Program-made: the position numbers and the translations under genes | Sequence record: MT129654.1 | Origin: Escherichia phage MN04 | DNA: 64,000 nucleotides | Strand: one strand, 5' to 3' | Notes under the pieces: model-generated | Database searches by the model: none | What the model saw: the letters and a program-made list of their open reading frames with translations, nothing else | Told to the model about the DNA's origin: nothing | Shown: piece after piece, positions 1,968 through 14,972 of the stretch | Layout of the letters: every line of letters starts with the position of its first letter | Position numbering within the stretch: position 1 is the first letter of the stretch

Positions 1968-2791
1968 GTATATTTTCCTACATCAATGAGGCTACTGAAA
2001 CCACAAAAGGTTCTAAGCCTACTCGTTCAGAACAACAATGGATAACTTTAGGCGTTGAATATGCCAAAGCTAAGGCCAAAGGTGTCTCGGCTAAGAAATT
2101 CGCTGAAGATAAAGGCATCAAGTATTCTAGCTTTACATCTGCGATGTCTCGATACTCGAGTCGAATTAAAACTGCTGTACAGGTTGAAAAGCTTCAGAAT
2201 AAACCTGGCAATAAATTGACCAAAGCCGAACGTCAATTAATTTTGGTGAATAGTTTTAGAAAGAGTATTCGTGATAAGATTGCTAACGAAGGCGCTGCTG
2301 TAAACAATAAATCAGCTAAATGGTTTACAGAAACATTAAAGAAAGGAATTCGTGGACACCAGGTATCTAAACCATCTCCTGGTAAGCTTTATGCTTATAT
2401 CTATGATGCTAAACACAAGGACACATTACCCTACTGGGACAAATATCCTTTAATCATTTATCTTGGGCTTGGTAAGCATAATCTGATGTACGGGTTGAAC
2501 TTACACTATATTCCGCCTAAAGCACGCCAGCAATTTCTAGAAGAATTGCTGAAGCAATACGCGAGTACGCCTACCATTACGAACTCGACTAAATTAAAAA
2601 TCGATTGGAGTAAGGTAAAAGGATTCGCTGGCGCTGACGTGATGATTAAGGCTTATATCCCTGGAAATATCAAGGGTCCTTTAGTAGAGATAAAACCTTC
2701 TGATTGGGCTAATGTAGTCATGCTTCCGCTTCAGCAATTTGTATCTAAAGGTAAGCGTTACTCAGCTCAGAAAGTATGGAAGAACGCATAA
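1955..2791 (+). CDS. 2: DNA end protector protein gp2 (278 aa; start may be the second ATG at 1964)
   Basis: ORF overlapping gp4 stop; size close to T4 gp2 (274 aa); synteny 4-2-3-1. Confidence 0.7.
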
Positions 2792-2876
2792 TAATCTATT
2801 ATCCCAGCCAGTTATTGAATGGAACAGACCTAGGACCATTATACACTGGCTAGGACTTAAGCAATATAGGAATCCT

Positions 2877-3467
2877 ATGAACGGTTTATTTAACCAAACT
2901 AACACTACCAACTTTATCTTAGAGGTTAGTGACTCAGGAATGACGCAGTCATTCAAATTGAACGTACAAGATGTAACACTACCAGGTATCCATATTCCGG
3001 TCTCAGACGTCCCAGGATCGACCCAAGGTATAAACCGTGCTAAACTGCCAGGTTCTACTGTAGAATTCGACCCTTTGATTGTGAACTTTCTTGTAGACCG
3101 CGAATTGAAATCATGGCTGGACGTTTATAAATGGATGCTATCATTAAACAACTATGTAACACATGAATCCGAAGCCTGGCATCCTAAAGGTCAGCCTGAG
3201 GCTATCACCCTCCACATCCTTGATAACAACAAACAGAAAATCGTAATGAGCATTCATTACTACGGTGGTTGGCCATCAGACCTTTCCGAGATTCAGTACT
3301 CTTATAAAGAAGATTCCGACCCTGCGATAATCGCTACAGCAACATTCAACTTCAAATCGTTTGCTGTAGAAATAGATGGTACAATAGTTACAGGTCGTCC
3401 ACAAATTGATTCGTATGCCGAACAACGTGTGGCTCGTATGTCTATGCATCCATCTATGAGAAAATAA
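2877..3467 (+). CDS. 3: tail completion and sheath stabiliser gp3 (196 aa; alternative start at 2937 would give 176 aa)
   Basis: ATG 2877 preceded by SD tagga; stop overlaps gp1 start; synteny. Confidence 0.65.
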   Translation: MNGLFNQTNTTNFILEVSDSGMTQSFKLNVQDVTLPGIHIPVSDVPGSTQGINRAKLPGSTVEFDPLIVNFLVDRELKSWLDVYKWMLSLNNYVTHESEAWHPKGQPEAITLHILDNNKQKIVMSIHYYGGWPSDLSEIQYSYKEDSDPAIIATATFNFKSFAVEIDGTIVTGRPQIDSYAEQRVARMSMHPSMRK

Positions 3468-4220
3468 TGAAACTAATATCAATTGTAGGAATCAAACGTA
3501 GCGGTAAGGATACCGTTGCTAACTATGTAATTGAGAATATGGATTCCGTAAAATTCCAACTCGCTGGTCCTATTAAAAAGTATCTGGCTGAAGCTTATGA
3601 ATACATATCTGATGACCCTGTATTCGACCGTAGCTATATGCCTAAACTTGATTTTAACTGTTTTGAAGGTATCGGTTACGACCGTGAAGAAATCCTTCCT
3701 TTAAAACCATATGATGTGGTTGATATTTTTGAACATGCTATTGTTAAACTGAATAATATCCTTCCTATTCCAGGAATTGATGTTCTTACCGCATATCATT
3801 ATGGTCTTACCCCGGTCCAGTATCTGTCTGAAGAAACAAAAGACCAGCTATTTGAAGTAATAAATAAAAATAACAATTGGTCAGTACGTCGTCTCATGCA
3901 GACCCTTGGGACTGATATTATTGTTAACCAATTTGATAAGATGTATTGGGTTAAGTTGTTCGCTTTAGACTATTTTGATAAAATATACTCTGATGCGAAA
4001 TACTATGTCGTACCTGATGTTCGTCAAACACATGAAATTGATTCGCTCAGAGCGATGGGTGCTACGATTATTCATGTAGTTCGCGCTGAAACCGGTCAAG
4101 TACAAGACTCGCACATCACTGAAGCGGGTCTACCAATTTTACCTGGTGACGTTGTTGTTGAAAATAACGGCACTCTTTCTGAACTATACACCACTATTGA
4201 TAAATTATTAGGAAATAAAA

Positions 4221-5139: not shown

Positions 5140-5180
5140 GTTTACAAGGTCTATAGACATGATACTATAGACCTATCAAA
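5140..5180 (+). promoter_or_regulatory. T4-type early promoter within a promoter/stem-loop cassette
   Basis: GTTTAC at 5140-5145, -10 region within the inverted repeat ggtctatag/ctatagacc, conserved core gatactatagacctatcaa. Confidence 0.6.
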
Positions 5181-5208
5181 ACAAACCCAACCTAACGGAA
5201 ACAAAAAA

Positions 5209-5502
5209 ATGAAAACTTATCAAGAATTTATCAAAGAATCGACAGATTTGTATTCCATTAACAAAGCGGCTATGGCCGATATTAGTAGCGATATTAAAAG
5301 AGCCTTTGGCTCAGGTGATGTTGATAAGGCTCAGCAAATTACTATTACAGTAAATGGTAAACCTGTTAGTATAGCATTCAATACGGTTAAAAAGAAATAT
5401 TATATTAATCTTGGTGATGATATCCACTTTACAAAATATAAGACTTTTTCCGGTCTTACCAAAGATAAAGTAGTTTCTAAAATCAAAGAAATTACAAAAT
5501 AA
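5209..5502 (+). CDS. internal protein with capsid targeting sequence MKTYQEFIKES (97 aa)
   Basis: N-terminal CTS as in T4 IPI/IPII/IPIII; position next to 57B as for T4 ipI. Confidence 0.65.
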   Translation: MKTYQEFIKESTDLYSINKAAMADISSDIKRAFGSGDVDKAQQITITVNGKPVSIAFNTVKKKYYINLGDDIHFTKYKTFSGLTKDKVVSKIKEITK

Positions 5503-5504
5503 TT

Positions 5505-5548
5505 GTTTACAACGGGCTTTAGTTGATGATACTATAGCCCTATCAAAA
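5505..5548 (+). promoter_or_regulatory. T4-type early promoter cassette
   Basis: GTTTAC 5505-5510 plus conserved gatactatagccctatcaa core. Confidence 0.6.
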
Positions 5549-5571
5549 CAAATGAGTGATTGGAGAATAAA

Positions 5572-6922: not shown

Positions 6923-7045
6923 GAATTATGTGATATTATTACTCTATCATTAATACCCTCTATTACCAAAGGTTCTTCCCTCAAAGAGCCTTTCATAATA
7001 GACAAGGTCTATTAATCAAACTTACTTTACTTAATTTTATTTGAG

Positions 7046-7318
7046 GTGTTTATGTTAGTATTAAAATTAGCTTTTTATGACCCAGAAACCAAGACAACAA
7101 CTACTAAACGTTGTTCTATTTCATATGAATGCCAATTTGGCGAAGTTGAGACCGACGGCGAGCCCTTTATGGCAATTGCCGATAGCACATTCGCTAAACC
7201 AAAAATAATTCCACTAGTTAACGCTGCGGCTTATCTGGTTGCTCCTGAAGAAATGACTTATCATACAATTCAGCACATGGCTAAAGACGATAATGCTCCT
7301 GCTGGATTTGTAATTTAA
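7046..7318 (+). CDS. hypothetical protein (90 aa)
   Basis: ORF with SD gaggtg upstream. Confidence 0.45.
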   Translation: MFMLVLKLAFYDPETKTTTTKRCSISYECQFGEVETDGEPFMAIADSTFAKPKIIPLVNAAAYLVAPEEMTYHTIQHMAKDDNAPAGFVI

Positions 7319-7323
7319 ATTAA

Positions 7324-7397
7324 GGCCCTGTAGCTGGACGGTCAAGCGAGCGACTCATAATCGCTGGATGGTGGTTCGATTCCACCCAGGGCCACCA
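7324..7397 (+). tRNA. tRNA with anticodon CAU (Met, or Ile2 if lysidine-modified), CCA encoded
   Basis: Acceptor stem GGCCCTG/CAGGGCC, anticodon stem AGCGA/TCGCT with loop CTCATAA, T-arm GGTGG-TTCGATT-CCACC. Confidence 0.8.
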
Positions 7398-7401
7398 ATT
7401 T

Positions 7402-7476
7402 GGATGTGTAGCTCAGTGGTAGAGCAGTTGACTGTTAATCAATTGGTCCATGGTTCGAATCCATGCATGTCCGCCA
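7402..7476 (+). tRNA. tRNA-Asn (anticodon GTT), CCA encoded
   Basis: D-arm GCTCAGTGGTAGAGC, anticodon loop CTGTTAA, T-arm CATGG-TTCGAAT-CCATG, acceptor with two G-U pairs. Confidence 0.75.
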
Positions 7477-7480
7477 AATA

Positions 7481-7556
7481 CGAGGCATAGCTCAGAAGGA
7501 AGAGCAACGGTCTTCTAAACCGTAGGTCGTAGGTTCGATCCCTACTGTCTCGACCA
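7481..7556 (+). tRNA. tRNA-Arg (anticodon TCT), CCA encoded
   Basis: D-arm GCTCAGAAGGAAGAGC, anticodon stem ACGGT/ACCGT with loop CTTCTAA, T-arm GTAGG-TTCGATC-CCTAC; T4 also carries tRNA-Arg(UCU). Confidence 0.75.
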
Positions 7557-7559
7557 AAC

Positions 7560-7860
7560 AAGAAACCGGGTCGCTACCGGTAAGCCGTCGGACTGATGTT
7601 CCCTGAGTAAGGACTGACATTAACAAATCTTTACGATCTGTTAACGTCCCCTTACATCACAGCAGAAACGGCGCACCGAATTATCGATTCGAGGAAATAT
7701 CTTTGCCGTAAGCCGAGTAGCGTTTTTGACGGAACGTTCGGATATGGTCGAGATATGGCCTTTTAAAAATATTGAGTAGCGTCAACTACTTAATAACCGG
7801 GTTCGAATCCTGGCGTTTCGTACAAACACTTGCCTAGCAGGTGGAACCCCGACAAGGTTA
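7560..7860 (+). ncRNA. structured non-coding region with a tRNA-like 3' T-arm; possible small stable RNA(s) analogous in position to T4 rnaC/rnaD
   Basis: No ORF; T-loop-like CCGGG-TTCGAAT-CCTGG at 7797-7813 and a long imperfect hairpin at about 7609-7660; sits between the tRNAs and a terminator. Confidence 0.3.
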
Positions 7861-7871
7861 CCCTAGGTTAA

Positions 7872-7900
7872 AGGCCCTTCCGAAAGGTTGGGCCTTTTTT
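7872..7900 (+). terminator. rho-independent terminator
   Basis: Hairpin aggccc-ttccgaaaggtt-gggcct followed by a T-run. Confidence 0.7.
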
Positions 7901-7901
7901 G

Positions 7902-7909
7902 TATAAATA
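7902..7909 (+). promoter_or_regulatory. late promoter TATAAATA
   Basis: Exact TATAAATA right after the terminator, 27 nt upstream of ATG 7936. Confidence 0.55.
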
Positions 7910-7935
7910 TACAGTAAACTAACTTAGGAAATAAT

Positions 7936-8490
7936 ATGAAACTTTTAAAATATTTGAGTTGGATTCTGTTGGTCCCACTAGATTTTATCTCTATGGTTCT
8001 AGCCGTTATCCTTGCGCCTTTTGTGGTTCCTTTCCACAATAAAAAGACTGGTAAATTGCCGTACGGTTTTGATTGGATGATGACATACGATAATCCAATT
8101 GACGGTGACAAAGGTCATATTAAACGTTGGGCTAAAATCAGGAAAATGCCTGGCGGTGTTTATCTCCAGAGGGTAGCTTGGCTATGGCGAAATAAAGCTT
8201 ATAACTTTGCTTACCATAAACTCGGTCGCGATTGTAGCTCAGAATTCCATTATCGTGGTAATCCTGATGTGGAATCAGGTTCTCCTGATAAAGCTCACCA
8301 TGGTTGGTTGTGGATGTGGAATGATGACGCCTGGGGTGTATTTGCTTCAGTTCCTTATCTTAAGGTCGGTGGAATCACATTTTACCTTCGCGTGTACTGT
8401 GGCTGGAAGCTTAAGAGTCTTTTGTCTCGTAAAATCCCTAAAGCTATGTTAGCCTTCCACGTGAACCCGTTCCGGTTCTACAAGAACTGA
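7936..8490 (+). CDS. membrane protein (184 aa, N-terminal transmembrane helix)
   Basis: ORF flanked on both sides by identical terminator plus late-promoter cassettes. Confidence 0.55.
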   Translation: MKLLKYLSWILLVPLDFISMVLAVILAPFVVPFHNKKTGKLPYGFDWMMTYDNPIDGDKGHIKRWAKIRKMPGGVYLQRVAWLWRNKAYNFAYHKLGRDCSSEFHYRGNPDVESGSPDKAHHGWLWMWNDDAWGVFASVPYLKVGGITFYLRVYCGWKLKSLLSRKIPKAMLAFHVNPFRFYKN

Positions 8491-8495
8491 TTTAC

Positions 8496-8522
8496 GGCCC
8501 TTCCGAAAGGTTGGGCCTTTTT
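8496..8522 (+). terminator. rho-independent terminator (second copy of the cassette)
   Basis: Same hairpin ggccc-ttccgaaaggtt-gggcc plus T-run as at 7872. Confidence 0.7.
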
Positions 8523-8523
8523 G

Positions 8524-8531
8524 TATAAATA
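8524..8531 (+). promoter_or_regulatory. late promoter TATAAATA
   Basis: Exact TATAAATA, 28 nt upstream of ATG 8560. Confidence 0.55.
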
Positions 8532-8559
8532 GATAAGTTAATTAACACAGGAAACAATA

Positions 8560-9177
8560 ATGAAAACTTACAATGAATTTTTGAACGAAAGCGTTCTGAC
8601 TGAAGCCAGCGTGCGCATGACTAAAGATATGTGGCAAGCTGCTTATGATAAAATTTCCGGGACTAAAACCACTACCGAGTTCTTTAAAAACGTTTATGAT
8701 ATGTATGGTTTTGATACTAGTAGCCAGAAAGAATATTACAAAGCTTCCAAAGCTTTTAAAGATATCGTAGCCGGTGGCGCTACTAAGCCTGCTAAACCAG
8801 CTAAAGCTCCTGTTTCTAAACCCGTGGCTCAGACCAAAGTTGCAGCACCGAAACCGACACCTAAAGCAGAGCCTGTAAAAGAAGCTCCTAAACCTAAAAT
8901 CAAGTTCGACACCAGCACTATTGTTAAAAAATATAACCAGCTGGCTTCTTTGGTTTCTGAAATCGAATCCGAAACTAAACAACTCGTTCGAGAATTCAAC
9001 GCCCTTCGTAATGGGCAGCACATTAACAACCTGGATACCCCAGACCTCTATCGTCTTTACCTGACGGTTGAAGGCCTTAAGTATACCCAGCCTATGCACG
9101 AAGAAATTGATAACAAACTTCGTCAAGCCCGCCGCCTTGCAGGTGACGCAGCACAGTTCGAAAAGACCCGTAAATAA
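8560..9177 (+). CDS. internal protein, IPIII-like (205 aa, Lys/Ala/Pro-rich, CTS MKTYNEFLNES)
   Basis: CTS N-terminus; basic AKPAKAP repeats; late promoter upstream. Confidence 0.65.
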   Translation: MKTYNEFLNESVLTEASVRMTKDMWQAAYDKISGTKTTTEFFKNVYDMYGFDTSSQKEYYKASKAFKDIVAGGATKPAKPAKAPVSKPVAQTKVAAPKPTPKAEPVKEAPKPKIKFDTSTIVKKYNQLASLVSEIESETKQLVREFNALRNGQHINNLDTPDLYRLYLTVEGLKYTQPMHEEIDNKLRQARRLAGDAAQFEKTRK

Positions 9178-9182
9178 TGAAA

Positions 9183-9202
9183 GGAGACTTTGGTCTCCTT
9201 TT
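9183..9202 (+). terminator. rho-independent terminator
   Basis: Hairpin ggagac-ttt-ggtctcc followed by TTTT. Confidence 0.6.
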
Positions 9203-9236
9203 AGGGGGTTTAAACTAAAAATAATTTCACAAAGTT

Positions 9237-9280
9237 GTTTACACCTCCTTTAAATATGATACTATAGACCTATCAAAACA
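9237..9280 (+). promoter_or_regulatory. T4-type early promoter cassette
   Basis: GTTTAC 9237-9242 and conserved gatactatagacctatcaa. Confidence 0.6.
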
Positions 9281-9300
9281 ACAGTGTGAAGGAGAGTAAA

Positions 9301-9564
9301 ATGGATAATTATGGTGAATTGTTTAATTTCTTTATGAAATGCGTTCCTGAAGAATTTGGTGCTACTGTTAACGATATTAAGGTTATCGGTCCTGAACACC
9401 CAGTGTATGAAACCTATGCAGTAATGGGTAACGAAGATGGACAGTGGTATACAATTAAAGTTGTGATTAATATGTTCTCAGCTGAAGGCTACGCCAAAAC
9501 GTCTACCAAAGTTTACCATGATAACGATTTTGATGCAGAAGATTATTTCAATAATATGAAATAA
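9301..9564 (+). CDS. hypothetical protein (87 aa)
   Basis: ATG 9301 with SD ggagag. Confidence 0.5.
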   Translation: MDNYGELFNFFMKCVPEEFGATVNDIKVIGPEHPVYETYAVMGNEDGQWYTIKVVINMFSAEGYAKTSTKVYHDNDFDAEDYFNNMK

Positions 9565-14906: not shown

Positions 14907-14950
14907 GTATACAAGGTCTATAGGTGTGATACTATAGACCTATCAAAACA
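14907..14950 (+). promoter_or_regulatory. T4-type early promoter cassette
   Basis: GTATAC -35 variant, inverted repeat ggtctatag/ctatagacc, core gatactatagacctatcaa. Confidence 0.55.
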
Positions 14951-14972
14951 ACAGAGTGAAATGGAGAATAAA

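Follow-up and report, generated by a model that had tools for sequence, protein, structure and literature searches.

A predicted terminator and late-promoter repeat at both borders of a variable DUF7338 gene in a JS98-like Dhakavirus

In a JS98-like T4-type phage of the genus Dhakavirus, a 36- to 37-nt sequence combining a hairpin, a T-run and a late-promoter octamer was found at both borders of a single 184-aa accessory gene, and the content and order of genes at this position vary among related phages. The repeat is probably a regulatory unit, consisting of a terminator and a late promoter, placed at both borders of an accessory-gene cassette. The locus is the hyperplastic region between the tRNA/stable-RNA cluster and e.8, and it is a clear instance of the accessory-gene shuffling already known in T4-type phages, not a new mechanism. 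In the following, the window refers to the whole 64-kb stretch of DNA that was analyzed.

Results

Repeat units at the borders of the accessory gene

The two copies of the repeat (Table 1) were identical at 36 of 37 positions, with one T fewer in copy 2. Their positions in the preliminary description (7872-7909 and 8496-8531) were confirmed, except that the first copy starts one base later, at 7873. The 27-nt core formed by the hairpin and the T-run was exact in both copies, had just these two occurrences in the 64-kb window even when up to three mismatches were permitted, and gave no matches in 100 dinucleotide shuffles of the window. In a repeat search the similarity reached 5 nt further in the 5' direction (7868-7899 vs. 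8491-8522, 94% identical over 32 nt), three of the five bases upstream of the core being identical between copies. As previously described, the copies bracket the 184-aa gene alone, this being the only credible open reading frame between them.

Table 1. Features of the locus in the window.
Feature	Position	Strand	Basis and remarks
tRNA-Met, tRNA-Asn, tRNA-Arg cluster	7324..7556	+	ARAGORN; Rfam tRNA 62-73 bits; start of the upstream transcription unit
rnaD homolog (T4 stable RNA species 2)	about 7557-7680	+	Alignment to annotated T4 rnaD
rnaC homolog (T4 stable RNA species 1)	about 7681-7825	+	Alignment to annotated T4 rnaC
Repeat copy 1	7873-7909	+	GGCCCTTCCGAAAGGTTGGGCC + TTTTTT + GTATAAATA, 37 nt; direct reading
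Hairpin and T-run, copy 1	7873..7899	+	Predicted intrinsic terminator of the tRNA/stable-RNA unit
TATAAATA, copy 1	7902..7909	+	T4 late-promoter consensus match, 26 nt upstream of the DUF7338 ATG
Accessory gene, 184 aa	7936..8490	+	Pfam DUF7338 / phrog_2143; N-terminal transmembrane helix predicted
Repeat copy 2	8496-8531	+	GGCCCTTCCGAAAGGTTGGGCC + TTTTT + GTATAAATA, 36 nt; direct reading
Hairpin and T-run, copy 2	8496..8522	+	Predicted terminator of the DUF7338 transcript, 5 nt past the stop codon
TATAAATA, copy 2	8524..8531	+	Late-promoter consensus match, 28 nt upstream of the internal-protein ATG
Internal-protein gene, 205 aa	8560..9177	+	phrog_2280; capsid-targeting leader MKTYNEFLNE of T4 internal proteins
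Separate hairpin AAAGGAGAC...GTCTCCTTT	9180..9201	+	Predicted terminator after the internal-protein gene; -16.9 kcal/mol
T4-type early-promoter cassette before e.8	9238..9281	+	Directly follows the hairpin in phages without the internal-protein gene

Either copy folds into a 5-bp GC stem, a 2x2 U.U internal loop, two further base pairs and a GAAA tetraloop, followed by a U-run, with folding free energies of -17.8 kcal/mol for copy 1 (z = -4.0 vs. shuffles) and -15.3 kcal/mol for copy 2 (z = -3.1). Both copies thus have the architecture of an intrinsic terminator, i.e., a GC-rich stem-loop directly before a U-run (T5-T6), and a simple terminator scan missed them because of the internal U.U loop. 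Among nine hairpin variants from T4, Dhakavirus and Gaprivervirus phages, stem positions were paired in 98%, and compensatory changes were observed at two of the seven stem pairs (G-C to C-G and G-C to A-U). The T4 ortholog, GCCCCGACCGAAAGGTTGGGGC followed by T5, lies 47 nt 3' of rnaC, at the position equivalent to copy 1, which therefore corresponds to the conserved terminator of the tRNA/rnaD/rnaC cluster. Copy 2 accompanies DUF7338 in every JS98-like (Dhakavirus-type) arrangement that keeps the native 3' end of the gene, the exceptions to this pairing being VR5 and the Gaprivervirus phages. The two copies have become different in NC-G, AnYang and KIT01 through divergence of copy 2. Since diverged copies retain the stem, the hairpin is under selection and not a decaying scar. 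Terminator activity is predicted for both hairpins.

A third copy of the identical 22-nt hairpin was detected in JS98 (3700-3721 of the fetched segment), between the convergent uvsW.1 and uvsY-side genes, approximately 46 kb away and beyond the window, as well as in five further fetched relatives. JS98-type genomes carry three hairpin copies each, the third without a promoter, and its site is the location of the conserved bidirectional terminator reported in T4-like phages (PMC1524935). The same 22-nt hairpin was also found on an unrelated GC-rich metagenomic contig.

In both copies the hairpin and T-run are followed by TATAAATA, AGGAAA (Shine-Dalgarno) and the ATG, in this order. The octamer TATAAATA is the T4 late-promoter consensus, found at -13 to -6 (PMC1524935), and just two of its nine sites in the window, those in the repeat, directly follow a strong hairpin and T-run. 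An enrichment of TATAAATA across the window was considered and rejected (nine sites vs. 6.8 ± 2.6 in shuffles). A promoter scan returned a weak sigma-70-like match (9/12) overlapping 7908-7935 at copy 1, and found no such promoter at copy 2. The previous reading of each copy as a hairpin terminator immediately followed by a late promoter was hence borne out in its sequence features (fold, T-run and exact octamer), while late-promoter activity of the two sites is predicted. As both the terminator and the late-promoter functions are predicted from sequence only, so is the insulation of the gene that had been attributed to them. The capsid-packaged protein encoded downstream belongs to a class expected to be made late.

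The DUF7338 gene and its neighbours

The bracketed gene matched the DUF7338 profile over residues 1-183 (212.6 bits vs. a gathering cutoff of 27), a family widespread in T4-like and Felix-O1-like phages. It had been described as encoding a membrane protein, a label based on one N-terminal hydrophobic helix. The motifs T-x-DNPxxGDxGH-xxRW, WLWRNKAYNF and GWKLK are strongly conserved, and structure prediction gave a confident helix-plus-sheet domain, for which no solved structural relative was found; some database homologs are labelled "holin" without visible support. With a GC content of 42.2%, the gene is close to the window as a whole (39.1%) and to its neighbour (42.7%); the idea that it is foreign DNA was rejected on these compositional grounds, and nothing points to a recent acquisition from a host.

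Over the 2 kb surrounding the repeats, identity to JS98, NC-G, UP19 and IME281 was 95-97%. An Rfam scan of 7000-9400 recovered three tRNAs only, with no family for the rnaC/rnaD-like RNAs or for the hairpin. The approximately 146-nt rnaC homolog is absent from JS98, dhaeg and JS10, so rnaC is itself present or absent within the genus. Relatives also vary in tRNA content (Met/Asn/Arg in some, Met/Arg only in others), and a segB-like homing endonuclease gene of 666 nt, absent in the window, lies amid the tRNA genes of AnYang, LHE83, IME540 and GRNsp7.

The 205-aa protein encoded downstream begins with a leader, MKTYNEFLNE, that corresponds to MKTYQEFIAE of T4 IPIII and to the T-even consensus MKTYQEFIxE. 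BLASTP aligned the first 25 residues only with T4 IPIII (E = 0.002), and nothing significant was found past the leader; the earlier designation of this gene as IPIII-like thus holds for the N-terminal capsid-targeting leader and not for the rest of the protein, which is not detectably similar. In other phages it is replaced by an unrelated, alternative internal protein of 157 aa. The 157-aa gene (627-1100 of the fetched segment of a relative) and the 205-aa gene share an identical 5'UTR and first 17 codons (MKTYNEFLNESVLTEAS), which fits a swapping of alleles by recombination within this leader-coding part.

Four copies of a 24-nt early-promoter/leader cassette, GATACTATAGACCTATCAAAACAA, lie in the window (5161-5184, 5528-5551, 9258-9281 and 14928-14951; 0 expected by chance), and the copies at 5161 and 5528 bracket a single ip9-like internal-protein gene (5209-5502). 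This bracket, in the same region, is PeSL-like (see Discussion) and of the early-promoter type.

Arrangements of the locus in related phages

The locus was fetched from about 25 relatives, and its modules were mapped by tblastn and hairpin search. Arrangements were counted by means of four junction-specific BLAST queries on the phage collection combined with identity classes, record spans and module maps, as junction BLAST coverage alone could not separate the arrangements, the 5'UTRs of the two genes being alike. Among about 36 related phages of the database, at least six arrangements were distinguished (Table 2). The preliminary description had proposed an alignment with relatives to learn whether they have the bracketed gene, lack it or carry a replacement between the repeats; variation of this kind was indeed observed.

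Table 2. Gene arrangements among related phages.
Arrangement	Phages (n)	Order of modules	Members
1 (like the window)	8	Cluster, hairpin, late promoter, DUF7338, hairpin, late promoter, internal-protein gene, early promoter, e.8	JS98, IME281, UP19, Esco_phi_B-01, EcWhh-1, NC-G, AnYang, KIT01
2 (without DUF7338)	7	Cluster, hairpin, late promoter, internal-protein gene; a single repeat remains	dhaeg, dhabil, IME08, C6, CLB_P2, SHP1, ESCO10
3 (without the internal-protein gene)	6	Cluster, hairpin, late promoter, DUF7338, hairpin, early promoter, e.8	IME540, LHE83, MX01, PSD9, LQ5, JS10 (JS10 also without e.8)
4 (order swapped)	9	Cluster, hairpin, late promoter, 157-aa internal protein, another terminator, DUF7338, hairpin, early promoter, e.8	QL01, WG01, E33, UGJNEcP3, UGJNEcP4, EcoM_005, 04086, ABTNLsp5, GRNsp7
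DUF7338 relic	3	Grouped with arrangement 4, but only the last 16 codons of DUF7338 left	IME341, PSD2002, fDHCT2
5 (both genes absent)	2	Cluster, hairpin, early promoter, e.8	ABTNLS3, vB_EcoM_FB
6		Deletion starting at the DUF7338 stop codon and reaching the last part of the internal-protein gene	VR5

The layout of T4 is that of arrangement 5, in which ABTNLS3 has a single hairpin. DUF7338 and both hairpins are retained in IME540, LHE83 and JS10, and in QL01, UGJNEcP3, EcoM_005 and GRNsp7 the second hairpin remains 3' of DUF7338 despite the swapped gene order.

Insertions, deletions and replacements have their joints in the unit of hairpin, T-run and TATAAATA. Arrangement 2 is 622 bp shorter than arrangement 1, and the crossover falls in an ambiguous zone inside the repeat, in TTTTTGTATAAATA; accordingly, dhaeg and IME08 show the left flank of copy 1, one repeat and the right flank of copy 2, with no DUF7338. 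Arrangement 5 (ABTNLS3) equals arrangement 3 (IME540, LHE83) minus one repeat and the gene, a joint that was read by eye from sequences differing in the lengths of their downstream A-runs. The identical hairpin is joined to four downstream modules, namely the late promoter with DUF7338, with the 205-aa gene or with the 157-aa gene, and the e.8 early promoter. Since the joints in relatives lie in the repeat unit, and the gene is present, absent or relocated among them, the interpretation of the flanking repeats as a footprint of cassette insertion or exchange, put forward at the outset, is supported. In a neighbour-joining tree of DUF7338 (no bootstrap support) the arrangements were interleaved, with JS10 nesting among window-like phages, which is moderate evidence of repeated events.

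Some rearrangements at the locus make use of other short homologies, as in VR5, the 16-codon relics (IME341) and the e.8 deletion of JS10. In the latter phage (2572-2666 of the fetched segment) a short GAGGAGAG-type homology joins the early promoter of e.8 to the ribosome-binding site of orf133, and the loss of e.8 is a further microhomology deletion, at a Shine-Dalgarno sequence. In CCU7, hairpins of the repeat type flank the alternative internal-protein gene on both sides. Comparison of the Gaprivervirus phages VR20 and VR7 showed DUF7338 with a different 3' hairpin, and a repeat of only 13 nt, GGGCTTTTTTATA.

The Salmonella phage GRNsp7 has a T4-like backbone (Tequatrovirus, 95-97% identical to T4), with a T4-type first hairpin and a Dhakavirus-type second hairpin located 3' of a DUF7338 gene of 96% identity. 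Given these mixed hairpin types, the gene and its hairpin moved between genera as a unit. An insert of 1.2 kb (2288-3513 of the fetched segment), about 88% identical to Dhakavirus, occupies the gap between rnaC and e.8 that is empty in T4; it contains the 157-aa internal protein, DUF7338, the Dhakavirus-type hairpin and the early promoter, and looks like a recent cross-genus transfer.

Discussion

In the explanation that we favor, copy 1 would be the ancestral terminator of the tRNA-rnaD-rnaC cluster, and copy 2 the same terminator joined to the 3' end of DUF7338. The hairpins would halt incoming transcription and each TATAAATA would restart it at late times, so that the membrane protein and the internal protein would form separate late monocistronic units. 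Recombination or template switching between the copies, perhaps through UvsX-type homologous recombination, slippage or a circular intermediate, would delete exactly one repeat plus the gene (622-623 bp), an exactness due to their identity at 36 of 37 positions. Insertion may proceed via the reverse reaction, or through two crossovers with a relative infecting the same cell. We view the repeat as one among several short homologies in regulatory sequence to which the region owes its plasticity, and it explains the clean loss and gain of DUF7338 and the re-pairing of the hairpin with unrelated neighbours. It counts against a repeat-driven reading that 36 nt is a short substrate for homologous recombination; moreover, between co-infecting relatives the long flanking homology suffices for gene transfer without the repeat. 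With two to three copies per genome, the unit is not a dispersed cassette family. A further reading, which we regard as rather doubtful, is that the hairpin after the cluster is a preferred capture site, or "late-expression slot", at which single-gene cassettes, each with a copy of this hairpin at its end, are inserted, excised as circles and re-ordered, and from which they are exported from Dhakavirus to Tequatrovirus, GRNsp7 being an example; the unit would then be a late ("PlSL") counterpart of the PeSLs described below, recombining at a rate above that given by 36 nt of homology alone.

Other explanations of the bracket differ in the role they leave to the repeat. Its copies could be a passive by-product, the hairpin and promoter having been duplicated once upon arrival of DUF7338 beside the tRNA-cluster terminator, with no continuing role, and the variation stemming from ordinary homologous exchange among co-infecting phages and from occasional illegitimate deletions. 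Such a history would agree with the joints at the locus that bypass the repeat, the different 3' terminator of the Gaprivervirus DUF7338, the divergence of copy 2 from copy 1 in NC-G, AnYang and KIT01, and the several kb of flanking homology open to ordinary crossovers. We nevertheless consider it unlikely: the identical hairpin joins four different downstream modules, clean single-repeat products are known in nature for both arrangements in which two hairpins bracket DUF7338 alone, the arrangements are interleaved on the gene tree, and divergent hairpin copies keep the stem.

The repeats would be equally incidental if a segB-like homing endonuclease cut relatives lacking its gene and the ensuing repair dragged the cassette along. 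The endonuclease gene does lie less than 1 kb upstream in AnYang, LHE83, IME540 and GRNsp7, the last of which is the cross-genus recipient; however, it is missing here from the window, JS98, dhaeg, IME08, QL01 and ABTNLS3, which span five arrangements, and co-conversion leaves the coincidence of the joints with the hairpin unexplained, making it a quite improbable account. Still harder to credit, to the point of being nearly negligible, is that the two copies arose independently, as terminators and promoters brought to the same sequence by functional constraint. Although an identical 22-nt hairpin exists downstream of uvsW.1 in JS98-type genomes and on the unrelated GC-rich metagenomic contig, the identity at 36 of 37 positions includes the unpaired U.U positions as well as loop, spacer G and promoter, and extends to three of five upstream bases; nor does convergence predict clean presence/absence joints.

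The repeat as a regulatory unit bordering a cassette has its closest parallel in the PeSL and PmSL elements, stem-loop cassettes with an early or middle promoter. These flank accessory ORFs in the hyperplastic regions of T4-type genomes and recombine, giving deletions, insertions and experimentally detected mini-circles (PMC2839356, PMC4122927). As in these elements, a stem-loop stands beside a promoter, a Shine-Dalgarno sequence and a start codon, brackets a single accessory ORF, and is found at insertion, deletion and replacement joints of close relatives in a hyperplastic region; the mechanism proposed for them, recombination between flanking copies, is also the one proposed here. The differences lie in the promoter, which here matches the late consensus TATAAATA (gp55-type) instead of a sigma-70-like early (TTGACA-N17-TATAAT type) or Mot-box middle promoter; in the number of copies, with two per 64-kb window and three hairpins per JS98-type genome vs. 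dozens dispersed; and in the stem-loop, a specific conserved terminator orthologous to that of T4 rather than a generic polyG/polyC stem. A late-promoter version is not described in PMC2839356 or PMC4122927, and a literature search found no publication on this locus in JS98-group phages; the unit is a possible late-promoter counterpart of the PeSLs.

Early-promoter repeats with weak AT-rich stem-loops have also been described at T-even internal-protein loci (Repoila et al. 1994, cited through PMC2839356 and PMC3012670), and in T4 such repeats, composed of promoter, stem-loop and leader, were confirmed upstream of both ipIII and ipII. Polymorphic internal-protein genes, a shared capsid-targeting leader and swapping between repeated upstream motifs are common to both cases, whereas the gene bracketed here is DUF7338, not an internal protein, and the unit consists of a strong GC hairpin and a late promoter. 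The late promoter, DUF7338 and terminator also resemble a lambdoid moron, i.e., an ORF lodged between genes together with a promoter and a terminator of its own (PMC1524935), in forming a self-contained expression module between conserved neighbours, but they lack a foreign compositional signature, and expression is predicted in the late lytic phase rather than from a prophage. Finally, a fixed slot past a conserved site, one-gene cassettes with a structured repeat at the 3' end, and variable order and content recall the attC/attI system of integrons; in contrast to the latter, the joints fit homology or microhomology rather than cleavage at a defined site, every cassette is equipped with a promoter, and no integrase or other site-specific recombinase was found associated with the locus.

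Specialists in the genome plasticity of T4-type phages would find this locus unsurprising. As a target for phage engineering, the locus is a slot of demonstrated permissiveness, with insulation and late expression predicted. The locus extends the idea of the stem-loop-promoter cassette from early and middle to late promoters, and it illustrates cleanly, with replication in nature, the gain, loss and re-ordering of accessory genes that T4-type phages undergo at short regulatory repeats. As the internal-protein genes found here belong to a class that includes anti-restriction factors (PMC12373910), such shuffling probably bears on host range.
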